Part shown: one piece after another, positions 3,907 through 58,065 of the stretch
Position numbering within the stretch: position 1 is the stretch's first letter
Layout of the letters: every line of letters starts with the position of its first letter
From: Eledone cirrhosa
Taxonomy: Eukaryota
DNA: 64,000 bases
Assembly: GCA_964016885.1 (NCBI GenBank)
Contig: OZ024742.1
Span: 36,084,001 to 36,148,000 of the forward strand
Direction of reading: 5' to 3'
Notes under the pieces: model-generated
What the model saw: the letters and a program-made list of their open reading frames with translations, nothing else
Told to the model about the DNA's origin: nothing
Database searches by the model: none
Position numbers and translations under genes: made by a program

Positions 3907-4256
<350 letters not shown>

Positions 4257-6691: not shown

Positions 6692-8697
6692 ATGGAAATT
6701 TTCGACCTTGAAACGGTAAACAACGTTCAGGTCAAAAGTTTAAAGGCAGCCACTGCAGATTTCACCACGACTACGACGGCTATAGTCATGCCTGTCATCC
6801 ACTCTACTTAATGTGAAGGCAAAACTCAAAAGCTACCGTCACAACCTTCTGTGATAGCAGCAGTATCATCTGAAAACGACAGCACCACCACCGCCACCAC
6901 CACCACCACAACAACAACTCAGAGCAATAACGACAATAACACCGACAGCTTCAATGTAAACAAGGATGGCGATGGCAACACCAATAACAACAGCAAGAAT
7001 GACAACAACAACAATAAGAGCATCAGAAACACCACATTTGCTGCAGCAGCAGCAAAAGCAAAGCGCTTATTGAATATTGATATTGATATTAGCGATAAAG
7101 ACGAACAGTTTGCCAAAGCGTGGAGGCTAATTAAACGGGAGAAGTCCTGGGCAAACCTGACCATCCCGGACGAGGCAATAGCGGCCATGCAAAGGAGGAC
7201 GGTGTTCTTTCGATGTATTTCGGTGCAGACACGAAAAGTGGAACTTGCGAGCCAAGCAGAGGTAGAGGCTGCTTTGGAGAACATCGGAAGTAACATAGAG
7301 TACAAAGCAAGAGGCAAACAGTTCGGTACCATCTCGGTACTGTTCAAAATCGAGGCCCTCGCTATTAAGCACTCGGTGACCCCTGCAGAACGGAACGCAT
7401 TATCATGCATCCGTCCTATATGGGTAAAAGGACAGTGAAGGTACGCATTCCCAGCATCCCACCAGGAATGAACATATGGTGGCTGCTGGGATGCGTAATC
7501 GAGGAGGGGACAGACACTACCCTCCTGGACATCAAAAGGACAGAGAGAGAGGACTGGTCCGGAATGGATTTGGAGATTCTTCTCCAAATGAAACCGGAGG
7601 ATATGAATAACATCCCGGATTTTGCCCGCCTGCAGGACGGGACAACAATCCAACTAATGATTGACGGAAGAAGGCCACGCTGCTTCGTCTGCGGGGAAGC
7701 AACGCATTTTCAAGCCTTCTGCCCTCAGCGCAAAAATGCAGGGGGTCGCAAACCTCCTTTGTTGCCAACACCAGTGTCAGCACGGAAAGCTGCACCACCA
7801 CCACCACCAAAAACAACATCAACAAAAACACGGACACCAACATCAAAAGCAGCCGGATCACCACCAACACCAAAACCAATCCAAGGAGAAAACGAGGAAA
7901 GCTCTCCCACTCCCCCTACCCCCCCCCCCCAATTATACACATAGACAAAACAATAAACGCACACACAGACACAGAGACACTCACAGACACAGACTCTTTG
8001 TCTTCCAGCAGCGAAGATGAAGGAAAACCCAAAAGTGCAAAAAAACAGAGAAATCTCACAAAAAAAAAAAGCCCCAACAAAACACAAAAACACACACAAC
8101 AAAAAATACAGACACCACTAACGCAAACACTTCCCCAATAACATCATCACCAACAACAACATCGACAATCCTCCACAATCCTCGAAACGCAAACAACCTA
8201 AACAAACACAAGTACAAATAAACACACAAATACATGAAATTGCAGACACCACACCTACAACAAACATAGACATACCCGAAACAACAGCACCAAAACCATC
8301 GCCACCACCTTCACCAAAACGAAAACAAATAAAACCACACCAACAAAATGTTAAAAACTTCGTGCTTGTCAGAAGGGCCAACGATAAACTGATGGCCCTC
8401 TTAGCGCGAAGCGAGGACATTCAAACAGAGGGGGAGATTTTTGAAATGAGCACATTTTGCGTGCCAGAAGATTTGCTTCTGGTCCGAATGTCACTCAATT
8501 CTTTCAAAGAAATTCGAGAGAGCTTTCCTCAAGACGTGGGAACCCCGTATCTGAAACCCACATCAAGACTTTTAAAGGGATTCCCAAAAGAAACCCCACC
8601 AACCATGGAGGTCGAACCACCCGACCTTCACAAGACCCGAGAGGTAAGTAAACCTTCCCCCTCTCTCTCTCTTAGCTTACCAATATGGTCATATTAA
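6692..8697 (+). pseudogene. Tx1-like ORF1 (gag-like, zinc knuckle), frameshifted
   Basis: RPRCFVCGEATHFQAFCP (CX2CX4HX4C) in ORF 7405..7944, with a low-complexity Pro/Thr/Lys tail. Boundaries are approximate. Confidence 0.75.
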
Positions 8698-11600
8698 GAG
8701 TAGGAAGTTTAAATGTTCGCGGCCTGGGGTCACCCTGGAAGCAGGGTCGCCTGCTCAACGACCTCCGGTCGCTGGAAATGGATGTGATTGCTGTAAGCGA
8801 GACCAGAATTTCCAACACGCGCGCACTAGCCCCCATTTTCGACGACTATCAGATCTTCGCATCTGTTAGCAGGCCGGGAATGGGGGGTGGGGTGGCAGTG
8901 CTGTTTAGGAAAGGACTGGATCTCAAGGTAAGGTCGATCTTCCGGGACCGGGACGGTAAGTTGGTGGTCTTGGATGTGAGCAGTAGCGAAGGTGGTGCCT
9001 TTAGACTGCTGGCCGTCTACGCCCCTACAGGGGCCGGACGACCTTACTTCTTTAGGCGCCTGGAGACCTTTCTGGGTACGTCTCGCCCTTTACTGTTAAC
9101 GGGGGACTGGAATGGCATCTTAGACGCACGCTGGGATTGTGTGGGAGTAGCCGATAGGAGCGGGGGGTGCAAAAGCCTCAAGCACCTACTCAGCCAGTTC
9201 CAACTGTCTGACAGGTATCGACTAGATTTCCCCAATGTGCCAGTATGGATATGGACCAACCGAATGGGGTCATCTAGATCGTATATAGACAGGATCTTCA
9301 TTAGGAAAATAGATAGAAATAGTGTGGGCTGTCCACTTTTTAAAACGGTCGCCTATTCAGATCACAAATTTGTGATCTGTACGGTCGACCTAAATAAAAC
9401 GCGTAGGTTAGGACCGGGTTACTGGAAGCTGAACATGTCATTTCCGGCACGTAAGGCTTACAGGGACCGAGTCAACAATTTAGTTAAGCAAAAGTTGACA
9501 GGGGGGATCATCAACAACAGATGATGAGTGGCTCTCAAAAGAGAGATTAGAGTAACTTCGATAGAGTTCAGCAAAGAACTAGCGCTAGAGAAAAATAGAA
9601 AGGAGGGGGAGCTGGTAGATAAGTTAGACGAGGCTATTTGTAGTGGCATCGCAACTGACGTGCTAGCGGCGAGAATGGCATTAGACCATTTCTTCAATGC
9701 CAAACACGAAGGTTGCATTGTCAGAGCTAAGGCGCGTGCGCTGAGAAACGAGGGAAGTAAAGCTGTTCGATGGGCCCGCGTGGCGGAGGCGCAGCGTGGT
9801 AATAAAACCACAATTCGGTCTTTGGCGGACCGAGACGGACACGAGATAAGCGATTCCAAGCGGATCTGTGAGGCCTTTCGCCAGCACTTTGCTCGGTTGT
9901 TCAGAGAGAGTGGCGAGTCAGAGAGAGTAGCGGATTTCAGTCCCTACCTTGACGGCCTGCCGCGCATCTCGACGGTCGACGCTGAGCGCTGCGAAAGGCC
10001 AATTACTTCAGCCGAAATTCAGGACGCCCTTGTCGGCTGCACGAGGCGCAAGTCACTCGGTTTGGATGGCCTGCCCTACGAGCTTTACGTAAATATGCCA
10101 GACTTGTTCTCCGAACTCCTCGAAGCACTCTACTGCAACTGGCAGCAGAATGGGAGTATCCCCAGTTCTGTGAGCATGGGAGTGGTGACGCTGATAGGAA
10201 AGACGAGAACAAGAGGGATACATTAGACAACTTCAGGCCCATAACTTTGCTCAACACAGAGTTTAAGATTTTAGCCAAGGTATTAGCAAAGAGATTGGCG
10301 CTTGTCGTCGAGGATTTGGTTGGGGAGGCGCAAACTTGCGCAATACCAGCCAGGTTCAGACACGACAATCTCCACCTCATGCGATACATCATAGAGAGGG
10401 TAGGGTGTAAACCTGGCTTAGGTGAGGCACTGATCAATTTAGATCAATCGAAAGCATTCGATAGGGTCGACCATCGGTATCTGGAGTTTGTCCTCAAAGC
10501 AGCTGGCTTCGGCCCTGTCTTTAGAAGCTGGATCGTTGCAATGCACAGCGACACATGCTCGGTGATCAAGGTTAATGGCCACCTCTCGGAACCATTTCGG
10601 CTCTCCCGATCGGTCCGTCAAGAGTGCCCTCTCTCTTCCCTTCTGTACGTATTGACTCTCGAGCCTTTCCTGCGGAAGCTGGAGCTGTTGCAGGGCATCC
10701 CGCTGAACCGGGACGTGGAAAGGCGGTGTCGGCTTATGCGGACGACATCACCGTGATGGTGTCGAACACCTCAGAAATCGAGGTGGTCGGCACCTTATTG
10801 AAGGAATATGAAAGGTTGACAGGAGCCAAACTTAACCCGGAAAAGTCGGTGGGCTTGCAGCTCGGAACCTGGAGAGGCAAGCCCATGCCGTCCAACAGCG
10901 TCGTGGGGTGCTGGACGGAAGGACCGGTAAAGTTGCTCGGGGTTTGGTTCGGACCAGACCTCCAGGTGGAAAAGAATTGGGACGAGGTAACGAGCAGAGT
11001 AGCCAGTCTCACCCAAAAATGGGCTGGGAGGAAGCTATCACTGAAAGGTCGCGCGGAGGTGGCGAATGCGTACATCGCGTCCGTCATCTACTACTGCCTG
11101 ACCGTCGTGCCTTGCCCCCGTCCGCGCCTCGTCAAGCTGGAACGGCTCCTCTTCAAATTCTTGTGGAGGGGACAAGTTCCGTTGGTGAGGCAGTCCATCT
11201 GCTGCCAGCACCCTCTACGTGGAGGGCTGGGCATTCCGTGGCTAATGATGCGCAGACATGCGTTGAGGCTGCGACATCTCCAGATATTCTGCCTCAACGG
11301 TGAACAGGTGTGGTCGCCGTTTATCAGACGGGCCTTTCCGCAGCTCATTTCTTTGACTGAGCTGCAGTCCTGGGTCAAGAAGAGACCGAGACTGGGTGAC
11401 TGGCACCTGGAATGTTGCCAGGCACTCACTGCCCTCTACCAAGCGGGCAATGCGATCAGTGGAACTTCCACTCTCGAGTTCTATAGAGGATTAGTGGTGG
11501 GAAAGTGCGATGACGCACTCGGAGAAGCTTTGGGCCTCGACGAAGTCGAACTGACCAGTCTGTACCGGAGGACTTTTGAGCCGATGGACAATTTCCAGAA

Positions 11601-12116
11601 ATCCCTCGCTTGGCAGTGCTACCGGGGGGGGGGGGGGCACTGCCGGTTCGGGATAAACTCTACAGGCACGGAAGTGCTGTCAGACGGACCTGCCCAAGAT
11701 GCGCACAGAACGACGAAACCGTTCTGCGCGCACTTGTCCAATGTCCGTGCACTACTGACTTGTGGAATTATGTCGAACAGCTACTGTCGCGTGTGGAACG
11801 AATCCGGCTATCGGCCGAGTCCATAGTGAAGATCGATCCACCGCCTTCCTAAGGTCAGGAAGAGCAGGAAATTTTCCTCTGTCTGGTGGCAGTTGCGAAA
11901 GAGATTATATGGTGGACCAGGTTGAAAGGACTAAAGACAGACACTTTTCTCTTCGGCCAATCCCTCATCAACTTCTTCAAGTTTCACCTGAAAAGGAAGG
12001 TGAGGGTGGAGAGAGAAGTGCTGCCCCCCCCCCCCCCCAGTACATTTGCTAAAAGGTGGGTGAATGTGGCGAGAATGGCTCGTGTGAATGGGCCTACTCT
12101 GACCATGCGCCTATAG
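8685..12116 (+). pseudogene. Tx1-like ORF2 (APE endonuclease + reverse transcriptase + C-terminal Cys motif), broken by stops and frameshifts
   Basis: SLNVRGL, SET, GDWN, YIDRIF, SDHK (APE); GPGYWKLN; GLDGLPYE, NLDQSKAFDRVDH, VRQECPLS, AYADDIT (RT); GGLG; CPRC. Confidence 0.92.
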
Positions 12117-18183: not shown

Positions 18184-18890
18184 GGGATGGGAGTGTGTTA
18201 GTATTTACAGGTCCCAATACTACCTCTCACCAAGCATGGACAGTACAACTGACCATCAACCCCTAAGAGAAAATATACTTAATTCTAGGTATCATGGTTT
18301 CACATTGGAAGTTATGAGTAAGAGTTGGAAATAAAAATTAAAATTTAAAATCGAAAATCCTAAATCAAATATCAGAAATTATAAATTGAAAAATAAAAAA
18401 ATAAAAAAATTAACAATTAGAAATTAAAAAAATTTTCATATGAGAATCCGGATTGAGGTAAGTAAAAAAATATATAGATTGAAATGAGTAAATAATATGC
18501 AGAGAGATGTTTAAGTAAGAAGTTCTGAAAGGGGCACTAATGTCACAGTTACACTATCCACATACTGAACGATAGTACTGTACAGTAGAACGGAGGGTAA
18601 ACTATAGTATGAAAGGCAATAGTCAATTGGGTACATAGTCATAATTTCCATCACATGGAACAAACCCCCCAAAAATGATATAAAGTACACAAAATAAAAG
18701 AACCAATAATGAATAAATGCAAAAACACATAGAGTACATATATGCAAAATGTCGCGACACTGGCACACAGAACAATGTGGACACTGTCGCCATTGCAGTA
18801 ATGCACTGGGTAATTGCTGGCCTCGTGCCAAAAGTAGAAACAATTATTATTAAAAGACTTGAACATCTGAAACTACTTCGCTTTTCCTTA

Positions 18891-18924
<34 letters not shown>

Positions 18925-18927
<3 letters not shown>

Positions 18928-19119
18928 GGAAAATGTATGACCCCGACGGCAGAGCTCAAGCCGTTTCGACGGCTATTTCTGGACTGAGAAATAGCCGTCG
19001 AAACGGCTTGAGCTCTGCCGTCGGGGTCATACTTTTTCCTATTTCCTACTCTACTACCCTAAGTATTGAGTACTCTGGTGCGTTATGGTCCATCTGGTTC
19101 CTTACCACAATTCCTTTGT

Positions 19120-19120
<1 letters not shown>
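18925..19120. repeat. Fold-back element, family C, containing the 3' half of a hammerhead
   Basis: 18925-19042 is an inverted repeat around loop GGACTG (18981-18986). The arm reads GAAACGGC-TTGAGCTCT-GCCGTC (stem III + GUC). A second fold-back is at 26135-26323 and a diverged copy at about 54975-55080. Confidence 0.85.
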
Positions 19121-19153
<33 letters not shown>

Positions 19154-19485
19154 CATAAGTTGAAAAAAATGAAAACGAAATTTCATTTCTCACTCTTAGT
19201 ATGGCACTTACTTAAATGTAAGTATGTATGTATACGTACATACATATATGTATACAGACGTACAGTAGCATGCATACATATACATATATATATATATATA
19301 CATACATATACATATATATACATATATGCATACAGGTACACATACATATATGCACGCATCAGTTTAGCGGACGTTTATTACAACGCCGCTTTGTTCGTTT
19401 GTTTGTCAACAAACCGAACAGCCTGAATTTATGCCATACGGTGTTAAGGCAACCACGTCACCTTTTTGTTCAACACTGACACAGG

Positions 19486-19530
19486 AACGATGTACTAGTT
19501 TCAAGCTTGTTAGCTATCATCAGCACCGTT
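19486..19530 (-). ncRNA. Minimal type-I hammerhead ribozyme (retrozyme unit, inverted arm)
   Basis: Reverse complement of 20365-20409. Confidence 0.85.
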
Positions 19531-20364
19531 TACCCATCTGCCAGATAGTTGAACGTTCGAAAGTATATACTTTCCTTATGAAAATTAACGGCTGAGCAGC
19601 CTAATTTGCATATTGAGTGAGTTAAATCGGTCAGGCATACCGAAAACGATAAGTTGAAAAAAATGAAAACGAAATTTCATTTCTCACTCTTAGTATGGCA
19701 CTTACTTAAATGTAAGTATGTATGTATACGTACATACATATATGTATACAGACGTACAGTAGCATGCATACATATACATATATATATATATATACATACA
19801 TATACATATATATACATATATGCATACAGGTACACATACATATATGCACGCATCAGTTTAGCGGACGTTTATTACAACGCCGCTTTGTTCGTTTGTTTGT
19901 CAACAAACCGAACAGCCTGAATTTATGCCATAAATTTATGCCATAAATTTATGCCATAAATTTATGCCATAAATTCAGGCTGTTCGGTTTGTTGACAAAC
20001 AAACGAACAAAGCGGCGTTGTAATAAACGTCCGCTAAACTGATGCGTGCATATATGTATGTGTACCTGTATGCATATATGTATATATATGTATATGTATG
20101 TATATATATATATATATGTATATGTATGCATGCTACTGTACGTCTGTATACATATATGTATGTACGTATACATACATACTTACATTTAAGTAAGTGCCAT
20201 ACTAAGAGTGAGAAATGAAATTTCGTTTTCATTTTTTTCAACTTATCGTTTTCGGTATGCCTGACCGATTTAACTCACTCAATATGCAAATTAGGCTGCT
20301 CAGCCGTTAATTTTCATAAGGAAAGTATATACTTTCGAACGTTCAACTATCTGGCAGATGGGTA

Positions 20365-20409
20365 AACGGTGCTGATGATAGCTAACAAGCTTGAAACTAG
20401 TACATCGTT
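20365..20409 (+). ncRNA. Minimal type-I hammerhead ribozyme (retrozyme unit)
   Basis: AACGGTG-CTGATGA-T-AGCT-AACA-AGCT-T-GAAAC-TA-GTA-CATCGTT: 7-bp stem I, palindromic stem III ACTAGT, GUA triplet, predicted cut after 20402. Confidence 0.88.
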
Positions 20410-20858
20410 CCTGTGTCAGTGTTGAACAAAAAGGTGACGTGGTTGCCTTAACACCGTATGGCATAAATTCAGGCTGTTCGGTTTGTTGACAAACAAACGA
20501 ACAAAGCGGCGTTGTAATAAACGTCCGCTAAACTGATGCGTGCATATATGTATGTGTACCTGTATGCATATATGTATATATATGTATATGTATGTATATA
20601 TATATATATATGTATATGTATGCATGCTACTGTACGTCTGTATACATATATGTATGTACGTATACATACATACTTACATTTAAGTAAGTGCCATACTAAG
20701 AGTGAGAAATGAAATTTCGTTTTCATTTTTTTCAACTTATCGTTTTCGGTATGCCTGACCGATTTAACTCACTCAATATGCAAATTAGGCTGCTCAGCCG
20801 TTAATTTTCATAAGGAAAGTATATACTTTCGAACGTTCAACTATCTGGCAGATGGGTA

Positions 20859-20903
20859 AACGGTGCTGATGATAGCTAACAAGCTTGAAACTAGTACATC
20901 GTT
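20859..20903 (+). ncRNA. Minimal type-I hammerhead ribozyme (retrozyme unit)
   Basis: Identical to 20365-20409 and 494 nt downstream; predicted cut after 20896. Confidence 0.88.
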
Positions 20904-21233
20904 CCTGTGTCAGTGTTGAACAAAAAGGTGACGTGGTTGCCTTAACACCGTATGGCATAAATTCAGGCTGTTCGGTTTGTTGACAAACAAACGAACAAAG
21001 CGGCGTTGTAATAAACGTCCGCTAAACTGATGCGTGCATATATGTATGTGTACCTGTATGCATATATGTATATATATGTATATGTATGTATATATATATA
21101 TATATGTATATGTATGCATGCTACTGTACGTCTGTATACATATATGTATGTACGTATACATACATACTTATATTTATACATACATATATATATATATGCA
21201 TGTATACATTTTTTTAATATATGCATTGTATAC

Positions 21234-21300
<67 letters not shown>

Positions 21301-21771
21301 ATATACACACGTGTGTGTGTGTGTATGTGTGTGAAAGCATGTTGGGGAACGTGTCTGCCAAAACACTCCTCCGTTATGAATGTACCACATTGTCTAGTAT
21401 AAACACAAAACTTGTACCATAAAAACCTGCCTGATCTCTCACCTCTCCCCCTCTCACGTACACACCTTTGTCTTTCTCTCTTCACCTCTGTCTCTCACCT
21501 GATATTTCAATTAATTTATTGCACTCCCCTGACTGGTAAAAGACAAATAGTGAAACTATATAAATGTAAACAACACATCTATCTATATATTCACACACAC
21601 ACACATACATATATATTGGGTTGTAACAAATTTCCGCCGTTGTTATAATTTGTTTAATAAAAAAACGGCGGGAACTTATGTTACATCCTAATACGTATAA
21701 ATAAATATATATATATATATACATATATGTACGTCTGTATACATATATGCATGAACGTATACATACATACT

Positions 21772-21812: not shown

Positions 21813-22330
21813 ATAATAATAAAATTGAAGACTAAAATCCAAAGAGGGCTCGATAAGGAAAATATATATCAAATATATAAGAACCGTAGAGCCAATATTT
21901 ATTAAAATAACAGATTAAAATTTAAGCAAAGAATCGCTGCTTTCACCCTTAACGGGATCTTCTGAAACTAACAAAGTCAATCTGTAAACGCAGAACTGGA
22001 TATTTCAAAAAACATTGCAACCGGAGGAAGACAGGAAGACGATACTTTGGTTCGTGGAAACGTTCGCTGGCAAAGAACGGGAAAAAACAAATAATACGTC
22101 ATTAATAGGAGCGGTGAAAAACAATTACGCGCAAAGACAGAACCACGTTTATGGTATAAAAGAGGTCGTAGACTAATGTTATCTTAGGTGGTGCATAGAG
22201 ACGTTCTCTGGCAATGAACGAAAAAACGAAGATAATAAGTCATATGTGGACCGTGGAGAACAATAGCGCGCAAAGACAAAACCACGTAAATGGTATAGCA
22301 GAAGTTGTAGACTAAAATTCTAACTAGGAG
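21810..22330 (-). mobile_element. Longer copy of family B terminal repeat with an internal ~140-bp diverged duplication
   Basis: 21810-21965 matches 4043-4193. CGTTC-CTGGCAA...GCGCAAAGACA-AACCACGT...GTAGACTAA occurs twice (about 22061 and 22202). Confidence 0.65.
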
Positions 22331-25425: not shown

Positions 25426-25429
<4 letters not shown>

Positions 25430-25860
25430 TAAACGGAATAGAAAATGCTGACAAATTGTTCACAGTTGAAAAATAGTTTAATTAGGAATAATAGAGTATT
25501 AGTAATTGTATGGGTTAGTATTCAGTTGTGGTTTTAAGTTTTTAAGTTTTTACCGGTTGCGCATTTCTAAATGCTTTTCAAAAATAATTTTGAGATAGAG
25601 TGTCCGTGTTGTTTGCTCTGATCTTGAGCAAACAACACGGACACTCTATCTCAAAATTATTTTTGAAAAGCATTTAGAAATGCGCAACCGGTAAAAACTT
25701 AAAAACTTAAAACCACAACTGAATACTAACCTATACAATTACTAATACTCTATTATTCCTAATTAAACTATTTTTCAACTGTGAACAATTTGTCAGCATT
25801 TTCTATTCCGTTTACCAATATATAATAACTTGTGTGTTACACCTCTATTCTTTTAACTAT
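25426..25860. repeat. ~393-bp fold-back of the Neptune-like element's 3' terminal repeat (family F)
   Basis: 25426-25818 is inverted about 25622. The arm matches 49471-49860. (TA)n flanks. Confidence 0.9.
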
Positions 25861-25903: not shown

Positions 25904-26110
25904 TTTATTAAAATAACAGATTAAAGTTTAAGCAAAGAATCGCTGCTTTCACCCTTCAGAAGATTCCTTTAAGGGTGAAAGCACCGATTCCTTACTTAAA
26001 CTTTAATCTGTTATTTTAATAAATATTTGCTCTAGGGTTGTTATACATTTGATATATATTTATCCTTATCGATCTCTCTTTGGATTTTAGTCTTCGCATT
26101 TATTATTATT
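25904..26110. repeat. Fold-back element, family B
   Basis: TTATTAAAATAACAGATTAAAGTTTAAG...CTTAAACTTTAATCTGTTATTTTAATAA inverted arms. Confidence 0.8.
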
Positions 26111-26134
26111 ACTATATATATATATATATATATT

Positions 26135-26320
26135 ACAAAAGAAATGTGGTAAGGAACCAGATGGACCATAACACACCAGAGTACTCAATACTTAGGGTAG
26201 TAGAGTGGAAAATAGGAAAAAGTATGACCCCGACGACAGAGCTCAAGCCGTTTCGACGTTTCTAGTCCAGAAATAGCCGTCGAAACGGCTTGATCTCTGC
26301 CGTCGGGGTCATACTTTTTC

Positions 26321-26323
<3 letters not shown>
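26135..26323. repeat. Fold-back element, family C
   Basis: ATAGGAAAAAGTATGACCCCGACG...CGTCGGGGTCATACTTTTTCCTAT inverted arms, with a different turn point from the copy at 18925. Confidence 0.85.
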
Positions 26324-31467: not shown

Positions 31468-34400
31468 ATGTCTAATGATGAAATCTCATACCGGATCGGC
31501 CGTCACCCGGGTAAAAAAGGGCCGCGTCCCTCAGAGAGGAACCAGACTGGGGTCGAAAAATCAGCTAATGGTTCAAACCTTCCCATCACTTCGGAGCTGG
31601 AGACCTCCCATAACCGGAATACTCCTACTGTTGGCCCTCCATGCTCACCACCAAGAAATCCAAAGAAAAAGAGAGAAAAATGGTCAAGGGAAGATAATAA
31701 AGAAGTCCTTGAGGCTTTCTACACTGCCATGTACTACCCATCAAATACATCGAATACAGAGCAAACATATATCAACTGGAAAAAGAAACATCCCGAAAAC
31801 AGAGGCTATATTGACAGTAACAAACTAGCCAATATACGAAGAAATATTGTAAGAAAAAAGTTACTAACTGATATAGAAATTGATCAGATCAAGCTAGTAG
31901 CACAAAGTCAGCGAAGGGAAAATGAAGCATGTGTCAGTGAAAACGAGGTAAACTGTAACACTTCGAATCCCAGAGTTGGGGCGGAATCACTGGCAACAGA
32001 ACAAATTAAAGAAAGGAGCGAAAAAGTGGAGGGAGTGCATGCTCAGGATGAAACTCCAAATGAAAATAATGAGATCGTAAATGATAAAGAAATGAATGAG
32101 AATGAACTTGCCAACTTGAAGGATGAAATTATGATCGAATGGATGAAAATGAAAGAATCTGACATGGGGGAACGAGACACCCTCCCTAAGATCCAGAACT
32201 CCAAACAGAACCAAAAGATAATACACAAGACAAACATAATTCTCAAAAACATTATCATCACAAACAAACTAAGCATTACTGACTTAAATCATCTCTATTA
32301 TGCATCGGCTAAAGTCACCACTCACTTATGTGGAGTGAAGATGAAAAAACAAAGGAATTCCCACAAGAAATCTACTTGGCAAGATAACATCAATCGCCAA
32401 ATAAACCTTCTCCGATCTGACATAGAAATTTTAACAAACTATAAAGTAGGTGAACATGTTAAACAAACTAAACTTAGAAAATTGAAAAAAAAGTACAGTA
32501 TAAGATCAACATGTGACATAGACATGCTGATAGAAACAATCAAGCAAAAAGTGTCGGCCAAAGCTGCTCGTATAAGGCGCTTTGAAAAACGATCTAGATT
32601 CTATAAGGACAATAATATGTTCAAAAACAACCAAAGAAACTTCTACAGAAAAATTGGTAAGTCAACAATAACTGCTAAATCAATACCACCCAAGGAGGAA
32701 GTGCAAGAATTCTGGGAAAAGATCTGGGCCGAAGAAAAAGTTCATAACATACATGCCCCATGGATAGACAGACAAATGAAAGAAACAGCTCACCTTGAAG
32801 AACAAACATGGGAAAATATAACAGTTGAACAGCTGCGCTTGGCTCTAAGAAAAACCAGCAAATGGAAATCCCCAGGAAAAGACAAAATACAAAACTTTTG
32901 GATAAATGCCTTCACAGAGTCTCATGAGCTGTTAGCCCAACTTTACAATGAAATAGTTAAGGAGCCAGAAAAGATACCATCATGGCTAGTTAACGGCATT
33001 ACATTCCTGCTACCGAAGAATGATGAGACAAACAATCCCAAAAATTACAGACCGATAACCTGCTTGACCACAATGTATAAAATTTTAACATCAGTCCTAA
33101 CTGAATACACATATGACCACCTGATAACAAATGACCTATTTCCCATTGAGCAGAAAGGGTGTAAACGAGGCTCATATGGCTGTAAGGATCAGCTTCTGGT
33201 TAACAAAATGATACTGGAAGATTGTCATAATAGACACAAAAATCTATCGATTGCTTGGATAGATTATAAAAAAGCATTTGATAGTTTGCCACACAGTTGG
33301 ATTGAAAAATGTTTAGAGATTTTCAAAATATCCCCCGTTATCAGGAGGTTTTTGTCATTCAGTATGAGGACATGGAGAACGACACTCCTTTTGAATAGTG
33401 AAACAAAATCACTGGAAGCTGGAGAAGTTAACATTAATTGTGGAATTTTTCAGGGTGACGCTTTATCACCGCTTTTATTCTGCATCGCACTTATACCATT
33501 AAGTAAAATGCTCAATGAAACAAAACATGGATATAGAGTCTATGACAAAACCATTAATCACCTGTTCTACATGGATGACCTGAAACTATTTGCAAAAAAT
33601 GATGAACAATTGCAAGGGCTATTATCCACTGTGAAGCAGTTCAGTGATGACATTAAAATGGAGTTTGGACTGGATAAATGCGCCAAAGCAACGTTCACCA
33701 GAGGAAAGCTGCTGAAGAGTTCAGACATTAATCTTGATCGGGGGAACGTGATAAGAGAGCTTGATCAAGAACAAACTTACAAATATCTAGGTGTTTGTGA
33801 AGGAGACGGAATCAAGCACTCGACAATGAGGGAAAGGATAAGGAAGGAATGTTACCGCAGAGTCAGAGCAATCTTAAGAACGGAATTGAATGCAAGGAAT
33901 AGGATCGATGCCATAAACACGCTTGCCATACCAGTAGTAACCTACAGTTACAATGTCATCAACTGGTCAAGCACAGAGATCCGTAGGCTCGATACAAAAA
34001 TCCGAAAATTCTTAACCATGCACAGAATGCATCACCCTAAGGCAGACATAGATAGAATATATCTCCATAGGAAAGAAGGAGGACGTGGGTTAATCCAGTT
34101 AGACATTGCGTTGAAAACTGCAACAATTGGATTATCCACATATCTAAGGGAATCACATGATTGGATGATCAAACTCGTTTTGAAACACGAAAGCACCAAA
34201 AGATCATATTCCATTACAAAAGATGCACAAAGATACAGTAATGGACTACAAATTTCAGAAGTCCCATTTACTGCTGAAATGGAAAACACAGAAAAAGCAA
34301 AGCAGGTAAAAGTAACTGTAAAGAAAGAACTGCTACAGAAACTGGCTAAGAAATGGCAAGAAAAGCCTCTGTATGGAAAATACCCAGAGCGAGCTAACAA

Positions 34401-35118
34401 TCCTGATGTTGACAAAACTTTAACCCATCAGTGGTTGGCATCCTCTGGACTGAAATCGGAGACTGAAGGACTGATTATATCCGCACAAGATCAGTGTCTG
34501 CCAACAAAAAATTACCAAGCCAACATAATAAAAAATGGGTGCAGCCCATTATGCCGTGTATGCAAAAAACAACCAGAGACCATTGACCATATAATTTCAA
34601 TGTGCAGTCCTATAGCTCCAACCGAATACCTAAACAGGCATGACAGAGCTGCACAATACATACATTGGATAATGTGCAAGCATTTTGACCTGCCCCATCA
34701 AAAGAATTGGTGGGAGCATCAACCACCTCCCATACTTGAAAAAGATCACATCTCAATCTTGTGGAACTTTAGCATCCAAACAGACCGAAAAATAGATGCA
34801 AATAGACCTGATATAATATTGAAGGACTTTCAAAGGAGGGTATGCCTGCTAATTGATATGTCTGTTCCAATAGACAAGAATGTATCTATAAAAACATTTG
34901 AAAAATTGAGCAAGTATAAGGACCTGGAGATAGAAATTGGAAAAATGTGGAAATTGAGAACTAAAACAATACCAGTGGTTGTAGGCGCTCTGGGAATGAT
35001 ACCTAAGGGGTCTAACGACTACTTATCGCAAATCCCAGGAAACCCGCGTATAGGAGAAATACAAAAGATAGTACTAATGGGAACTGCCCATATACTAAGG
35101 AAGATCCTGTCAATATAA
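31468..35118 (+). CDS. Intact R4/Dong-type non-LTR retrotransposon ORF (RT + CCHC + restriction-like endonuclease), element 1
   Basis: 1216 aa open. WKSPGKD, YRPITCL, WIDYKKAFDS, GIFQGDALSPLLF, YMDDLKL, GGRGL, CRVC..ETIDHIISMC, RHD, NRPDII, KLSKY. Ends in (TAA)n at 35259-35305. Confidence 0.95.
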   Translation: MSNDEISYRIGRHPGKKGPRPSERNQTGVEKSANGSNLPITSELETSHNRNTPTVGPPCSPPRNPKKKREKWSREDNKEVLEAFYTAMYYPSNTSNTEQTYINWKKKHPENRGYIDSNKLANIRRNIVRKKLLTDIEIDQIKLVAQSQRRENEACVSENEVNCNTSNPRVGAESLATEQIKERSEKVEGVHAQDETPNENNEIVNDKEMNENELANLKDEIMIEWMKMKESDMGERDTLPKIQNSKQNQKIIHKTNIILKNIIITNKLSITDLNHLYYASAKVTTHLCGVKMKKQRNSHKKSTWQDNINRQINLLRSDIEILTNYKVGEHVKQTKLRKLKKKYSIRSTCDIDMLIETIKQKVSAKAARIRRFEKRSRFYKDNNMFKNNQRNFYRKIGKSTITAKSIPPKEEVQEFWEKIWAEEKVHNIHAPWIDRQMKETAHLEEQTWENITVEQLRLALRKTSKWKSPGKDKIQNFWINAFTESHELLAQLYNEIVKEPEKIPSWLVNGITFLLPKNDETNNPKNYRPITCLTTMYKILTSVLTEYTYDHLITNDLFPIEQKGCKRGSYGCKDQLLVNKMILEDCHNRHKNLSIAWIDYKKAFDSLPHSWIEKCLEIFKISPVIRRFLSFSMRTWRTTLLLNSETKSLEAGEVNINCGIFQGDALSPLLFCIALIPLSKMLNETKHGYRVYDKTINHLFYMDDLKLFAKNDEQLQGLLSTVKQFSDDIKMEFGLDKCAKATFTRGKLLKSSDINLDRGNVIRELDQEQTYKYLGVCEGDGIKHSTMRERIRKECYRRVRAILRTELNARNRIDAINTLAIPVVTYSYNVINWSSTEIRRLDTKIRKFLTMHRMHHPKADIDRIYLHRKEGGRGLIQLDIALKTATIGLSTYLRESHDWMIKLVLKHESTKRSYSITKDAQRYSNGLQISEVPFTAEMENTEKAKQVKVTVKKELLQKLAKKWQEKPLYGKYPERANNPDVDKTLTHQWLASSGLKSETEGLIISAQDQCLPTKNYQANIIKNGCSPLCRVCKKQPETIDHIISMCSPIAPTEYLNRHDRAAQYIHWIMCKHFDLPHQKNWWEHQPPPILEKDHISILWNFSIQTDRKIDANRPDIILKDFQRRVCLLIDMSVPIDKNVSIKTFEKLSKYKDLEIEIGKMWKLRTKTIPVVVGALGMIPKGSNDYLSQIPGNPRIGEIQKIVLMGTAHILRKILSI

Positions 35119-35258
35119 GTACATCACAAGTCTAAACACTAAGGATGCATGTGTGAATATGTGTGTTCTTTCTTGAACATGGCGGACCTTGTTGTCTCTT
35201 GAGGTCACTGGTTGTGACTTGGTGATAACTCGTATAAACATAAAGCAAGATAAATGCA

Positions 35259-35306
<48 letters not shown>

Positions 35307-35583
35307 TTTTCCCGTAAATTCTGTGCAGTTATTCTTTCCCGAGACAAAAACTAAGTCAGACATTCGAATACTACATTACAATGAAACTTATGCTTATTCA
35401 TTTTTGGGGCCCTTTATGCCCGTGTGTTTGTTTGTTTATGTGTGTTCGTATACAGCGTGGTGATAATGCCACACAAGGGCCAAGTGGGATGGCGGATCCA
35501 CAGATGGCTATGTAAACATACATTCGCCAATCCTCGATAAGAGTGTTTAAATATCGAACATAAACAGTTCGAATAACGGTGAA

Positions 35584-38500
35584 ATGGAGACTAGAACGTC
35601 ATGTGACAGACTCTCACCCAACAGGTGCCCCCTGGCTCAGCAGCAGGAACCTGACTGTCAACCAAATACTGCTGATGTTGGAGGAAGAAGAAGAAGGAAA
35701 GGGGCCAGAACCAACTGGACGAAAGAATTGAATAGAACTGTTATGCAATGCTACCTGAAAAGTAACCCCAAGGAGAGGGGCTACAGGAGACGGATGCATA
35801 ACATCTGGAACGAGATTGGTTTATTTAAATTAGATGAACAAAAATTGGCCGAGCAGGCTCGGGTAATAAGAGCTAATGGGTGGATAAGCGAGCTGGAACT
35901 GGAGGAACTGAGCAGAGAGAATGGCTTGGAGATGGCGGGTGTAGTATGCCAGACAAGCGAGCCGGTGGGAAATGAAGGTGAGGAGGTCCTGAGAACGGAG
36001 GAACCACCCGAAGCAGACAATGATCTGAATACTGAGATAAATAATACCTGGAACAGAGATACGGCCACTGAGGAGATGAATGCTGACGGGCTAGGACAAG
36101 ATTCGGTTGACATCCTAAATCTAGTGGTAGATGAATTGAACAATGATAGTGGGAGACCTATGAACCTTAGATTTGTAGACAGGAAAAAGTTAAAAGAAAC
36201 AACAGCTAAGGTAAACAAAGTCATCCCATACCTTGAGGCGAGGAGTCTTCACCAGTGCAACAATATCCTCAAAGCAACAGCAAATACGGTGAGGAAACTA
36301 CTTGGTATAAAAGCGAGAGGAAACAACAGACAAGAAAGAGCAGAGCCGTGGTGGAAGAAGCGACTGAGTGGGCAAATCGGGGAAATGAGAAATGACATAG
36401 GAAAGCTTGAGTCACTACTGAATGGGACACTAAAAAACATAGGCACTAAAAATAGACTGGAAATAAAATACAAAACTAGGAGTAAAAAGCTAAATATTAT
36501 CATAGAGGAATTGAAGCAACGCATTGTAGCAAAGAGTGCCAAAATCAGGCGATACGAGAACAGAGTCAGTCAGTATAAACAGAACCGCATGTTCGACAAC
36601 AACCAGAAGATGCTGTTTGGACAGCTTGAGGGGAAAGAAAGAGGCAACGACTTGATCCCTGGGGCGGAACAAGCTAAAACATTCTGGAGAGGAATATGGG
36701 AGCAGGATGTTAGACACAATGCCCAGGCAGGGTGGATTGAGACAGTACAGAGGGAGATCGGTGAGAAGGCACAACAACAGACTGATTTGAGTATCACAGT
36801 TGAAACTCTTAAGGGGCAAGCCAAAAAACTAACCAACTGGAAATCACCAGGCCCAGATGGTGTGCAGGGGTATTGGATTAAACATTTAACATCCCTCCAC
36901 CCGAAGCTGACGGCCATGTTCAATGACTGCTTGGTGTCGGGTGAGGTGCCAGAGTGGTTGACAAAAGGTACCACAGTTCTGATAATGAAAGACCGAATCA
37001 AGGGTAATGATGTTACCAACTATAGACCTATCACATGTCTGCCCGTAATGTGGAAACTGTTGACGAGCATTGTGTCTGAGGAAATCTGCCATCACCTCCA
37101 CACAAACAACTTGTTACCGGACGAACAGAAAGGATGCCGAAAGAAGTCACGTGGTACAAAGGACCAGTTGCTTATTGATAAGATGGTAATGGGGAATTGC
37201 AGGAGGAGACACACTGATCTTGCCATGGGATGGATAGACTACAGAAAGGCATTTGACATGGTGCCTCATTCCTGGATCACCAAAAGCCTGGAGGTCTTCA
37301 GGGTGGCGGATAACATCAGACAGTTGCTGGGCAGGAGTATGGGGTCCTGGGAGACAGAGTTGACATCAACTGGAGTATCCTTGGGAAGCGTGAAGATCAA
37401 GAGAGGTATCTTCCAGGGAGATAGCCTGTCCCCTCTGTTGTTTGTCCTTGCCCTGATGCCCTTGACCATTATGCTGCGAAAAGTGAGAGCAGGATACAAG
37501 TTGGGAAGGGGAGAGCTTACCATCAATCACCTCCTCTTCATGGACGATCTTAAGCTCTTCGGGAAAAGTGAGAAGGAGTTGGATGTGCTTGTTGACACTG
37601 TCCGTATTTTCAGCAGTGATATATGTATGCAGTTTGGTATTGGTAAATGTGGAGTCATTGTGATGAAGAGGGGTAGGTTGAGCAGAAGTAACGGGATCCA
37701 TATACCAACAGGTGAGATGATAAAGGAAATTGACTCTGAGGAAGGATACAAGTATTTGGGCGTTCTGGAGGCTGATGGCATAAAGAACAAAAAAATGAAG
37801 GAATTGTTAAGAACTGAATACATTCGGAGAGTAAGGAGCGTATTGAAGTCACATCTGAACAGCAGAAATGCCATAAGCGCAGTAAATTCCCGAGCTGTGT
37901 CTATTATTAGGTACAGTGCTGGAATTCTGAGATGGAATGTTGCTGAACAAAAAGAAATGGATAGGAAGACTAGGAAGCTATTGACTATCTACAACATGTT
38001 CCACAAGAGGAGTGATGTCGATAGACTCTACCTAAGGAGATCTGAGGGTGGAAGAGGTCTTATCAGCATAGAGGACTGTGTTCAGATGGAGAAAAACAAC
38101 CTATACAAATACGTGACCTATAGTAAGGAGCCAATGCTCAGAACTGTACTGAAGGAGGGGACAGTAGGCCAGGGGATGTCCAAGGAGGAAATAACATCAA
38201 GGAGGAAGAGCAGCCTTAAGGGAAAATCCCTTCATAGTACCTTCTTTGAGAAAACTGAATTTAGAGATCCACAGACATGGAACTGGTTGAGAAGAGGAGA
38301 CCTCAAAAAGGCTACAGAAGGAATGCTAATGGCTGCGCAGGAGCAGGCCCTCAAAACGAAGTGGTTGAAGCACCATATCTACAAGGAGGAGGCTAGCCCA
38401 CTGTGCAGGATCTGTGGAGAGAGAGAGGAGACTGTGGCTCACATTGTGTCCGAGTGTAAACACCTAGCCCAGACCCACTATAAGGGCTGGAGACACGATG

Positions 38501-38976
38501 TGATGGGCAGGGTGATCCACTGGCACCTGTGCAAAGTAAACAATCTACCACATTCTGAGAAATGGTATGAGCATAGGCCAGAGGCGGTGATGGAGAACAG
38601 TCAGGTGAAGGTGCTGTGGGATTTTAGGATACAGACGGACAAAAAACTGGAACACAATAGACCTGACCTGGTGGTTATGGACAAAGAAAAAAGATCGTGC
38701 CTGATTGTGGATGTGGCCTGCCCGTTCGACACGAGAGTGCAAGAGAAGGAGAGGGAGAAAATTAACCGATACCAGGACCTAAAGTGGGAGGTGAAAAGGA
38801 TTTGGAACTGCCATGAAGTCAAAGTGATCCCGATTGTCATAGGCGCACTGGGGACTATCTCCAAAGGTTTCCAGGGATGGTTAAAGAAAATCGGCCCCTT
38901 CACGCTTTTTGGAACGCTTCAAAAGGCATGCTTGCTTGGAACAGCAAGAACCCTCCGATACGTCCTGAATATCTGA
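35584..38976 (+). CDS. Intact R4/Dong-type non-LTR retrotransposon ORF, element 2 (distinct family)
   Basis: 1130 aa open. WKSPGPDG, YRPITCL, GIFQGDSLSPLLF, FMDDLKL, CRIC..ETVAHIVSEC, RHD, NRPDLVV, KINRY. (TAA)n tail to 39092. Confidence 0.95.
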   Translation: METRTSCDRLSPNRCPLAQQQEPDCQPNTADVGGRRRRKGARTNWTKELNRTVMQCYLKSNPKERGYRRRMHNIWNEIGLFKLDEQKLAEQARVIRANGWISELELEELSRENGLEMAGVVCQTSEPVGNEGEEVLRTEEPPEADNDLNTEINNTWNRDTATEEMNADGLGQDSVDILNLVVDELNNDSGRPMNLRFVDRKKLKETTAKVNKVIPYLEARSLHQCNNILKATANTVRKLLGIKARGNNRQERAEPWWKKRLSGQIGEMRNDIGKLESLLNGTLKNIGTKNRLEIKYKTRSKKLNIIIEELKQRIVAKSAKIRRYENRVSQYKQNRMFDNNQKMLFGQLEGKERGNDLIPGAEQAKTFWRGIWEQDVRHNAQAGWIETVQREIGEKAQQQTDLSITVETLKGQAKKLTNWKSPGPDGVQGYWIKHLTSLHPKLTAMFNDCLVSGEVPEWLTKGTTVLIMKDRIKGNDVTNYRPITCLPVMWKLLTSIVSEEICHHLHTNNLLPDEQKGCRKKSRGTKDQLLIDKMVMGNCRRRHTDLAMGWIDYRKAFDMVPHSWITKSLEVFRVADNIRQLLGRSMGSWETELTSTGVSLGSVKIKRGIFQGDSLSPLLFVLALMPLTIMLRKVRAGYKLGRGELTINHLLFMDDLKLFGKSEKELDVLVDTVRIFSSDICMQFGIGKCGVIVMKRGRLSRSNGIHIPTGEMIKEIDSEEGYKYLGVLEADGIKNKKMKELLRTEYIRRVRSVLKSHLNSRNAISAVNSRAVSIIRYSAGILRWNVAEQKEMDRKTRKLLTIYNMFHKRSDVDRLYLRRSEGGRGLISIEDCVQMEKNNLYKYVTYSKEPMLRTVLKEGTVGQGMSKEEITSRRKSSLKGKSLHSTFFEKTEFRDPQTWNWLRRGDLKKATEGMLMAAQEQALKTKWLKHHIYKEEASPLCRICGEREETVAHIVSECKHLAQTHYKGWRHDVMGRVIHWHLCKVNNLPHSEKWYEHRPEAVMENSQVKVLWDFRIQTDKKLEHNRPDLVVMDKEKRSCLIVDVACPFDTRVQEKEREKINRYQDLKWEVKRIWNCHEVKVIPIVIGALGTISKGFQGWLKKIGPFTLFGTLQKACLLGTARTLRYVLNI

Positions 38977-39062
38977 GGCTGCAGGTAGTGGCTTGATATT
39001 CAATCCAACGGACTTTCCAGTTAACCAACATCAATGACTGAGATTCAAGGAATAACAATAAC

Positions 39063-44183
<5,121 letters not shown>

Positions 44184-44520: not shown

Positions 44521-44874
44521 TAACATTACTGTGACATATCCTTTGTAAACATCAGATAGATATTACATCGTAGTCTCAGCGGACGAAAATACGAATACGT
44601 TATTCCAGAGGATAATGAGGTAGAAATTTGTAGTTTATAGCTTATAGTTCATAGGAAGCATTGTGATATATATGGATGTTATTGTTTTGAGAAAGCCGGT
44701 ACAATGGAAATTTGAAATATAAGAGTGAAAACTAGAGTGTATGTATATATATTACATATATAAATACATACATATATCTATATATATATATTAAGATAAG
44801 CAGAACAAGTAAAATTCAACCAATTTTTCAAAATAAATTAAAAAATATAATATAAATATTTACCTCTTCTAATG

Positions 44875-44955
44875 GCCCTTACTGATCAGTTTCGCTTTGT
44901 AAAACCCCAGAATCCAATGGATATCTGATGGAAAACCAAAGCTCATCAGAGAAGC
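44875..44955 (-). ncRNA. Hammerhead ribozyme (family D) in an inverted terminal repeat (44790-45235) upstream of the Penelope ORF
   Basis: TTCT-CTGATGA-GCTTTG...CAAAGC-GAAAC-TGATCA-GTA-AGGG, with palindromic stem III ACTGATCAGT and GUA triplet. Confidence 0.85.
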
Positions 44956-46278
44956 ATTTTCCTTTCCTAGGGCTAAACGACCCAGGAACGATAAAATATA
45001 TGATCTTCTGCCAGCTAATACAGGTCTGAAAGGTCGTAAAAGTGACCCGTATGTAAACCGGACCGAAGTAAAAGCGGGAAACCATAGACTTACTGTCTAT
45101 AATTACTACCAAAAAAAAACGATCATCACATCGATCGTGCCTCAAGCTGGTCGCCAGAGAAACGATTGTAATATGTCTAATAAATTCCATTCGTCGCAGC
45201 ACTGATTCTCTTTTTTCCAGTGATATCATACTCTGGTCTATGAGAGCATCGAGTGCTCATACAGCCTACCTCAAAGACACCTTAGGGAAAGAATGGCATT
45301 GGAAAAAATGAAGACAGAAATTGAACTTCTTAAATTGAGGGCTCAGACAAATGAGGAAAAAATCAAAACCATCGATGAAGAGATCCTCCTGGAAATCAAC
45401 AATAAAACTGAAGGCCCCAAGGTAGAGAAGATCTCCAAATTATGGAAAGGGGACTGCAACAGAGAAGAACTGAAATCCCTTCAACGCTGGGAAAAAAGTG
45501 CCGCTTGGTTCCTACACTATGAATCGACTTTTCAAACGGATTACACCTCCAATAACCCGTTCATAAAAATAGGAAAACCCATAACTGAACCGCACAACAA
45601 CTTCGCAAACCCCCAAGCCACTAACAAACGAAGAAGGAAGCACCACACCGAAGATGAACTTCCCAACCTCGCTACCATAAGAAGGAACAAAAACCCTAGA
45701 AATCATCTCCTCCAGAATGACATTTACAACTTTCCCTTCAAGGAGACACCATACCAAATCACTCAACTACTACGCGGATGCCTCATCGTCAAACATAGGG
45801 AAAAGATACCACCACCATGATAGATGTAACAACTTCCCCGCTTCAAGGGGACAGCAAGGTAATTTCCATTTTCTCAACTCTCGCTTCCACAATACACAAC
45901 AAACCCACACCACACGATACAACCAACAACGTAGGCCACCTATAACACCACAACCCAACATGGCACATAGAAACACACACCCATACTCGCAGTACAGGAA
46001 CACCCCATTCAATCTACAACCACCAACCCGAACCACATTTTACAACAACAAGGAATATAACAAACACAGGAGACCACTTAACATCAGCAGACAACCCCTC
46101 TACCCCAACCATTTTTTAGACACAGCACACAGATACAGGCAAACAAAATAACACAAGACAGGGAGGAGAAACCGATAGTAATAAAAATTATCAATCTAAC
46201 TAGTGCAGAACCAACACCCAACCTTATCAACTTACTCTCCAAAGGTTTTAAATTCACACCGACCCCTACTACTATGAA

Positions 46279-48426: not shown

Positions 48427-49111
48427 GACGAACCCACAACATACACACGTCAACATACATACCTACATCAGCACCTACATACATCTCTATCCACATATAA
48501 ACACAATGACATACGTAAACACACATGTTCTATGGTGCAACACAAATATACACAAATTTGCATACCTTTTGATATCTATAGATATAAACGTGCCGACACA
48601 CACATACATGAACGCACACATGCATTGCACACTGATGGGCACATACATATTTGTACACAAGTATTCCAATACGGCAAGGCCTAATGGATTCCCCTTGCAG
48701 TACGTACAATCTGGACACACTCACACACACCTTGGTATTATGCCAATACTATATATCATTTCACACCTTTTATTATTAAGGTTTTTGATGTTCTATTGAG
48801 AGAATCGATTTTACTGAAAATATCGAATAATGTACACCATTTCACCAGTATCACAAAAATAATTACTGGTCCACCCACACACACACATACACATTCTCAC
48901 ACACACACACGTGTATGCGCACACACGCACATATATACACGCACACATACACACGCGTACATTAACATACAAAGAGACATATATGCACACATACACACAC
49001 ACTTCTCCGTATAAGACAAGAGCTGAAAAATATCTTTTAACATGTTAAAATATCCCCCACACACTTACAGACACATTCCTACTGACCATCCCTCTACCAC
49101 GAATTACTCTG

Positions 49112-49146
<35 letters not shown>

Positions 49147-49511
49147 TCTTAATAGGCATTTGAACTGTCAACAGGCTGCGGTTCGCACACACATCCCTGC
49201 TGGCCATTATCACAACTACGAACCTCTTTACTACTACTACACACACACATATTTGTTTTGAAAGACTTATTTTTCAGTGACTTCTCAATCAGCCGACACA
49301 AACCTACATTTGGCGCAAAATCAATTTTTAACATTCACATGACCTCTACCGACCAATCAAAATTGTTTTGACCACAAGAAATTTTGCAACACGAATTGGC
49401 GCAAAACTTATTTTAATACCGCTGGAGCCACTTTTTTAACATAAAAACAGGTAGAATTTCCAAAACTAATCAGATCAGAGCAAACAGCACGGACACTCTA
49501 TCTCAAAATTA

Positions 49512-49547
49512 TTTTTGAAAAGCATTAGAAATGCGCAACCGGTAAAA
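49512..49547 (+). ncRNA. Variant hammerhead motif (U3-A8 core, GCAA) in the Penelope 3' repeat
   Basis: TTT-TTGAAAA-GCATT-AGA-AATGC-GCAAC-CG-GTA-AAA, with palindromic ACCGGT. The same core occurs at 25660-25697, 58295-58332 and their mirror arms. Confidence 0.6.
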
Positions 49548-49587
49548 CTTAAAACCAAAACTGAATACTAACCAATACTATTACTAA

Positions 49588-49774
49588 GGGCGGTGGATTG
49601 GCAGTATTGGTAGAGGGTCGGACGCCATGCTTTGACGTATAGAGTTACGGCCCTTGCCTTTCTGAGTTCAAATCCCGCCAAGGTTAACTTTGCCTTTCAT
49701 CCTTACGGGGTCGATAAAATAAAGTACCAGTAATGCACTGGATAATTGCTGGCCTTGTGCCTAACGTAGAAACA
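49588..49774 (+). mobile_element. Full-length S1 SINE with 11-bp target-site duplication
   Basis: ACTATTACTAA at 49577-49587 and 49775-49785. It interrupts the family F repeat, which is uninterrupted at about 25740. Confidence 0.92.
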
Positions 49775-49853
49775 ACTATTACTAATTCTCACTTATTCCT
49801 AATTAAACTATTTTTCACTGTGAACAATTTGTCAGCATTTTCTTTTCCGTTTA

Positions 49854-49908
<55 letters not shown>

Positions 49909-52760: not shown

Positions 52761-52905
52761 ACTAGCAGAAAAAGCACCCTAAGAGTGGTTTTCTGCTAGC
52801 ATGTGTAGTGTGTATATTGATATTATACGCAAGTATATATGTATGTAGATATGATACTTCAAATAAAATCGTAATTGACAATATAAACAGAAATTGAACG
52901 AAGAC
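52761..52905 (-). mobile_element. Helitron-like 3' terminus, second copy
   Basis: Reverse complement matches 16935-17077 including hairpin and CTAGT. Confidence 0.55.

Positions 52906-53728
<823 letters not shown>

Positions 53729-58061: not shown

Positions 58062-58065
<4 letters not shown>

Follow-up and report, generated by a model that had tools for sequence, protein, structure and literature searches.

The four-fold 13-mer at the turn of a 1.6-kb palindrome in the Eledone cirrhosa genome most likely belongs to one recent, genuine head-to-head insertion, 2.0 kb long, of a 494-bp repeat that carries a type I hammerhead ribozyme. The four-fold repeat (the stutter) is most likely a scar from the joining of two DNA copies rather than a product of telomerase-like copying. 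The window, the whole stretch of DNA that was analysed, comprises 64,000 nucleotides of contig OZ024742.1 (36,084,001 to 36,148,000), and all positions are counted from its first letter. Head-to-head architecture with a target-site duplication (TSD) and a junction palindrome is already known for Penelope-like elements; the scar at this junction is unusual and informative. The insertion works like a Penelope insertion, yet it is no autonomous element, and the locus shows a putative retrozyme integrating with the Penelope head-to-head signature.

Structure and boundaries of the insertion

The left, inverted arm (19155-19932, minus strand) is 778 bp or 1.6 units long and has its RNA sense on the minus strand, while the right arm (19968-21170, plus strand) runs in sense orientation for 1203 bp or 2.4 units. 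The register of the right arm is unbroken up to 21170, which puts its end 430 bp past the point where the mirror of the left arm stops. At either outer boundary a sense 3′ end runs into a TA tract, and each end is bordered by one copy of a 14-bp TSD. The left copy (19144-19157, plus strand) forms the end of a (TA)n tract and shares its last 3 nt with the beginning of the left arm; the right copy (21169-21182, plus strand) begins with 8 nt that match the continuation of the RNA at 7 positions. The exact 14-mer occurs twice on the plus strand of the window, abutting the insertion ends in both cases, and 0 times on the minus strand. Though the context is of low complexity, with 50 matches within one mismatch against 4274 TA-rich 14-mer positions outside the insertion, the exact 14-mer is unlikely to stand at both boundaries by chance. 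Pairing with the target spans 3 nt at the left end and 7 of 8 nt at the right end (unit position 220); the identity at the right end fits priming and could also reflect a microhomology join.

Over 284 + 494 nt the left arm matches the reference unit at every position, and the five unit copies of the insertion, microsatellite tracts included, are identical except for the junction base. This identity points to one RNA species as the source of both arms and to a young insertion, and for the same reasons the stutter probably dates from integration. The outer end of the left arm lies at unit position 284, a recurring 3′ end of the family: a loose end in one run of public contigs (X3; 12 contigs, agreement 0.77) follows the unit to position 283 and then enters a TA run, and a second copy of the family in the window (52897-53603) ends at the homologous place. 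The three aligned runs (X1-X3) are short contigs of one sample and may be the source of the assembly.

As in endonuclease-containing (EN+) Penelope-like elements, an inverted, 5′-truncated copy lies head to head with a partial tandem, a TSD is present, and the target is AT-rich microsatellite DNA. An earlier sequence-only reading of the stretch had proposed a Penelope-type inverted insertion, and the hammerhead repeat, the TSD and the (TA)n target bear it out. No stop-to-stop frame of at least 150 aa overlaps 19155-21170, and the insert has no RT and GIY-YIG ORF of its own. A separate 190-bp element lies in TA tracts at 18928-19119 and 26135-26321 and ends in a hairpin of 50-56 bp whose spacer is short; the copy at 18928-19119 directly adjoins the target tract of the insertion.

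Identity of the repeat and size of the family

A motif scan detected one type I hammerhead per unit, at 20372 and 20866 on the plus strand and at 19523 on the minus strand. Stem I has 7 bp and helix III is short and palindromic, which is the usual form in metazoans according to the available text of PMC4209133. The left-arm hammerhead spans 19486-19530 (minus strand), with a predicted cut at 19493. Those of the right arm span 20365-20409 and 20859-20903 (plus strand), with predicted cuts after 20402 and 20896. Rfam gave a weak HH9 match to 20365-20409 (18.5 bits, E = 0.017; gathering score 52). Over 18500-21500 there were 179 sub-threshold Rfam matches, and no hammerhead was among the 150 matches listed; these were rejected as mostly microsatellite or miRNA look-alikes. 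The monomer from cut to cut is predicted to fold far below its shuffles (z = −10.4), an effect driven in part by the microsatellite. At 53297, in the diverged copy, a G-T to T-G change keeps the pairing of stem I.

The 494-bp unit has a GC content of 35% (0.354) and an internal TA/TG-rich tract. Hammerheads lie in at least two consecutive units of a non-coding, low-GC, dispersed repeat whose monomer is a few hundred nucleotides long and whose TSD is longer than 4 bp, features that fit a non-autonomous, non-LTR retrozyme. The metazoan non-LTR retrozymes described in the available text of PMC7229834 and bioRxiv 10.64898/2026.07.22.740005 likewise consist of tandem, low-GC, non-coding repeats with one type I hammerhead per unit, have a TSD of more than 4 bp and share their genome with a Penelope-like element. 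Their quoted unit length is about 300 bp, as compared to 494 bp with an internal microsatellite here. The latter source derives non-LTR retrozymes from Penelope pLTRs. The available text of the two sources, where the word "inverted" occurs only in a reference title, yielded no retrozymes arranged head to head.

The arms cross one and two predicted ribozyme cuts, which suggests that the template RNA was circular or an uncleaved multimer. Mobilisation would have been in trans by a Penelope-like RT/GIY-YIG protein; the window's own element of this kind (44700-49900) shows no significant match to the retrozyme unit (best E = 1.1).

In the three runs of the one sample, between 4092 and 4827 contigs per run aligned to a stretch of the unit that is free of microsatellite (20180-20543; 364 of its 494 nt), and only about a quarter of them had at least 99% identity. 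Half or more of the sampled words from 20180-20543 were present in 14 of 24 listed runs, which carry ten organism codes, and a 26-nt pattern of the family had 0 matches in metagenome contigs. The comparison copy at 52897-53603 (plus strand) belongs to the same family with ∼83% identity. It is head-to-head and has no stutter, and no TSD was found at it.

Anatomy of the stutter

In the assembly sequence, positions 19920-19975 (plus strand) hold a perfect array of period 13 with 4.3 copies (four 13-mers plus AATT, 56 nt), so that the four-fold 13-mer previously noted at the turn is real at this level. No other non-microsatellite perfect array with a period of 8-30 reaches four copies in the 64-kb window. 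The array is composed of two neighbouring dyads, AATT and TATG-C-CATA, spaced 6.5 nt apart, and its period equals twice this spacing. The left-arm form TATG-C-CATA is found in 4/4 of the 13-mers and the right-arm form TATG-G-CATA in 0/4. An unperturbed unit at 19424-19441 agrees with the normal unit as read before, and the unit at the junction differs from the next one by a single base, C versus G at 19967/20461.

The inversion had been placed at 19947/19948, which is the geometric axis only; as a real switch point it was rejected, all four 13-mers having left-arm polarity. The switch from antisense to sense lies inside the last copy of the 13-mer, at the last TATG-C-CATA (19963-19971), and the right-arm sense starts past the central C at 19967. 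Mirror arms of 793 bp each (19155-19947 and 19948-20740) agree with the 1.6-kb palindrome of the sequence-only reading, except that the right arm runs on to 21170 and the centre is imperfect: a base-by-base check revealed two C:C mismatches, at 19941/19954 and 19928/19967, because all four 13-mers bear the central C of the left arm. The loop base at the turn thus derives from the strand of the left arm, the shorter one. The odd central base of a near-perfect palindromic junction records in this way which strand gave the loop.

The turn is located on a quasi-palindrome that pre-exists in the normal unit, as had been supposed; dyads this strong occur at 7 of 364 non-microsatellite unit positions. 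TATG-C-CATA is self-complementary around its central base but makes an unstable mini-hairpin: the minimum free energy of the 9-mer is 0, and a forced 3-bp stem costs +1.6 to +1.9 kcal/mol. For two cDNA ends carrying the 9-mer, a trans dimer of −3.4 to −4.0 kcal/mol is predicted. A special stability of this 9-mer was rejected, since 101 of 364 non-microsatellite 9-mers self-dimerise at least as stably. In the predicted fold of the monomer RNA, the turn motif (20456-20464) pairs with 20687-20695 in a 9-bp long-range helix, a stronger fold-back option that is unused at the junction. The stutter was absent among the 18 loose-end rows listed, out of 254, from contigs aligned to the unit part 20180-20543, and such contigs could not have given its copy number.

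The stutter or its copy number might have arisen in the library, the reads or the assembly, at the tip of a long palindrome where polymerases and base callers both have difficulty. The absence of differences between units could reflect homogenisation of the consensus. A terminal fold-back read chimera, which had been raised as a possible artefact, would mirror the flank, and was rejected: the mirror ends exactly where the element does, and the two flanks are unlike each other yet share the 14-bp TSD. The stutter, moreover, copies the element's own sequence perfectly and in register, and head-to-head forms recur in the window and in public contigs. We regard an artefact as improbable; the inversion itself is very probably real, and an artefact would touch the copy number only.

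Ordinary replication slippage offers another route to the same final string. A single clean turn at integration would have been followed by expansion of the 13-mer, aided by its hairpin-forming repeats. The finished array has a strong predicted fold (z = −11.8), and instability is expected at the centre of a palindrome of 1.6 kb. On this account the 13-mer would have slipped three times without any divergence among the (TA)-rich tracts of the five units, unless the assembly homogenised them, and we consider later slippage unlikely.

Origin of the stutter

The sequence-only reading had explained the stutter by a cDNA 3′ end that repeatedly folded back and re-primed on its own strand before copying about 780 bp of itself. 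Neither step is supported by the junction. Although a quasi-palindrome is present at the turn, simulated self-copying predicts central bases in the order C,G,C,G as compared to the observed C,C,C,C. The arm lengths constrain self-copying as well: copying along the shorter, left strand would run into the flank after no more than 778 bp, still 430 bp away from the right end, and a right arm of 1203 bp would take one more template switch. The locus therefore excludes pure self-copying, which was rejected by central-base polarity and arm lengths alike. Only if mismatch repair had reset two bases in the same direction would literal self-copying escape the polarity result, and we consider it extremely improbable.

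One turn followed by slips of 13 nt on a G-containing template gave exactly the observed string in the simulation, which pure self-copying did not. The polarity thus indicates that each added copy was templated by the sense strand, as complementary DNA or as RNA; the two templates gave identical strings.

We favour, at about even odds (roughly 0.5), an origin in which both target strands were primed, the cDNA ends were joined at TATG-C-CATA, and slipping and extension via AATT made the stutter. Nicks staggered by 14 nt within the (TA)n tract would provide two 3′ ends, both of which would prime reverse transcription on one circular or uncleaved multimeric RNA species and yield two cDNA flaps in antisense, one of 778 nt and the other of about 1200 nt. 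Identical flaps could pair end to end at self-complementary sites only, and would meet at TATG-C-CATA, either annealed in trans or once a few bases had snapped back. Extension over the join would yield AATT-(9 nt)-AATT. The nascent top strand would then slip back by 13 nt on the new complementary strand three times, with an anchor of 4 nt for the first slip and of at least 17 nt for the later ones, before processive fill-in. The period of 13 would be set by twice the 6.5-nt spacing between the dyads, and the polymerase could be the element's RT acting on DNA or a host end-joining enzyme such as Pol theta.

Several observations, beside the exact TSD and the outer ends in TA tracts, favour priming at both ends. 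The right arm is longer than self-copying gives, and the predicted energies of the trans dimer and the hairpin favour a join of two ends. Turn spacers of 0-1 nt are also easier to reconcile with two annealing ends than with a hairpin. Against this reading, two cDNAs that stop independently would finish no more than ∼9 nt apart in only ∼4% of cases (19/494, by hand arithmetic), and this coincidence, together with the commonness of near-symmetric turns, favours a snap-back start or coordinated stops. The stutter is also a single case (n = 1).

A Penelope-like RT could instead have made the stutter on RNA. Reverse transcription would have stalled at a fixed stop after ...CATA, a snap-back would have added 1-4 nt of AATT, and the end would have re-annealed at AAUU and re-copied the 9-nt stretch of RNA three times. 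A final turn would have followed, the sense arm being completed on its own strand with a skip of one unit or on a second cDNA. Such reiteration, its template being the G-containing sense strand, arrives at C,C,C,C just as slippage does. The loop base comes from the strand of the left arm, whose outer end is the recurring start of the family, and symmetric turns lie on mini-palindromes in two other families of the window. Self-priming, moreover, has already been proposed for Penelope junction palindromes (PMC3846280, in its available text).

Against reiteration on RNA, it needs four stops at one nucleotide, ∼55 nt short of the ribozyme cut and at no known RNA end. The unfavourable 3-bp hairpin would have to be used four times, and an extra switch is required for the 430 bp beyond the mirror. 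Telomerase copies the same short stretch of its template several times, and the sequence-only reading had likened the stutter to its realignment. In the normal unit, the sequence preceding AATT has 0 nt in common with the end of the 13-mer, so that the RNA offers no alignment bases of the telomerase type; realignment becomes possible once a turn has added AATT. The junction differs from telomerase products also in having no defined template boundary, only three extra copies and a single occurrence. We consider it doubtful that an RT re-copied RNA in this way. If it did, the genome would preserve in this array a trace of telomerase-like repeat addition by the RT of an endonuclease-containing Penelope element, with a period set by two adjacent dyads, and stutters of period 2d would be expected where turns hit dyads d apart.

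Taken alone, the stutter is one scar that cannot name the polymerase, and it matters only if it recurs or is reconstituted.

Other junctions and turns in the window

A stutter formed at this motif had been expected to have counterparts at other junctions, and 1/3 of the retrozyme-family junctions seen lies at TATG-C-CATA. The junction of the second copy (52970/52971) is asymmetric, joining unit positions ∼335 and 44 with a 2-nt overlap and without the motif, and the one opposite-strand joint among the two joints listed from public contigs connects 20322 to 20446 with 4 shared letters (depth 34). These two junctions lie away from the motif. Two other families of the window turn on mini-palindromes of their own.

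A scan for inverted repeats with a spacer of at most 20 nt gave 15 rows, 8 of which were microsatellite and were dropped, leaving 7 non-microsatellite axes including the junction described here; the scan is blind to asymmetric junctions and the proportion of symmetric turns is biased accordingly. For two other families of the window an unturned copy is available for comparison. One turns at a pre-existing TTC-T-GAA, at 4192 and, with a loss of 12 nt, at 25958; its copies at 4055-4256 and 25909-26099 are turned at the same dyad and the copy at 21826-21990 runs through unturned. The other is the 3′ end of the RT and GIY-YIG element, which turns at a pre-existing GATC at 58257 and 25618. The arms of the two GATC palindromes differ at 1 and 3 of 190 positions within a palindrome and at 5-9 from one palindrome to the other, a pattern that points to independent events or to conversion between arms. 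Each of these palindromes (25427-25857 and 58063-58492) has a one-sided extension of ∼35 bp like a Penelope tail. No TSDs beyond TA runs were found at three other palindromes of the window.

Dyads of the strength seen at the turns occur at 7/364, 12/195 and 35/268 positions in the three families. The location of turns on dyads in all three suggests that mini-palindromes are favoured, as the sequence-only reading had supposed. The junctions of this very high-copy retrozyme family offer a test of single-strand self-priming versus priming at both ends that needs sequence only.

Relation to known insertion and end-joining systems

Palindromes at inverted Penelope junctions and their explanation by self-priming are not new, both having been published in 2013 (PMC3846280, in its available text). 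As described there and in PMC8557442, endonuclease-containing Penelope-like elements share with the insertion a head-to-head, inverted, 5′-truncated copy beside a partial tandem, a TSD around the whole unit, a junction palindrome and a microsatellite target; unlike them, the retrozyme insert has no ORF. The junction palindromes given in the available text of these sources are single (18 bp, 38 bp and a 15-bp overlap), whereas the one here is tandemly iterated. In the literature searched, which was incomplete, we came across no Penelope or retrozyme insertion with an iterated junction and no retrozyme inserted head to head.

The origin of tandem and inverted Penelope insertions is called unresolved in the consulted part of PMC8557442, which also places Penelope RTs as sister to telomerase RT. 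In work on a purified Penelope-like protein, both target strands were nicked and extended, synthesis began internally on the RNA, AT-rich DNA was preferred, and the protein is predicted to form a dimer (PMC11167929, available text). LINE-1 twin priming resembles the proposed priming at both ends in that both target ends are extended by RT, a discrete TSD is formed (12-18 bp at twin-primed L1 inversions) and microhomology is seen at the internal junction (PMC11702581, available text). The arms of L1 inversions described in that text come from neighbouring and for the most part separate stretches of a single linear RNA, whereas the arms here overlap completely and form a true palindrome because the template would have been repetitive or circular.

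Synthesis-dependent microhomology-mediated end joining (MMEJ) and the templated insertions of Pol theta are also alike, with short inverted or direct primer repeats, limited synthesis, melting and re-annealing, and new repeats at the junction (PMC5728401, PMC5068794). New junction repeats arise in trans and by snap-back (PMC5728401), and iterative rounds are suggested for some species. Those joins are described at nuclease or damage breaks, while the candidate join here is between two cDNA ends. Short fold-back inversions are reported in yeast (PMC11724301, available text).

Other elements of the window

An ORF with RT and GIY-YIG domains lies at 46252-48426, within a Penelope-like element at 46252-49856 that has a 724-aa stop-to-stop frame with an RT, a C-terminal GIY-YIG and a CxxC motif upstream of the endonuclease, the last of which may be Neptune-like. 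The 3′ end of this element runs into (TA)n and is interrupted by a 190-bp repeat at 49587-49780. Further type I hammerhead-like motifs, representing at least three other families, are located at 290 (−), 25005 (−), 28045 (+), 55982 (+), 56385 (−), 56887 (+) and 58761 (−, weak). Two long RT frames of 1216 and 1141 aa lie in tandem at 31468-44060, and the second is followed by three extra 5′-truncated copies of 1670 bp, at least 99.6% identical and joined in frame via (AAT)n. Broken copies of an endonuclease-RT retrotransposon are present in opposite orientation at 8676-11826 and 50900-52543 and are ∼75% alike.
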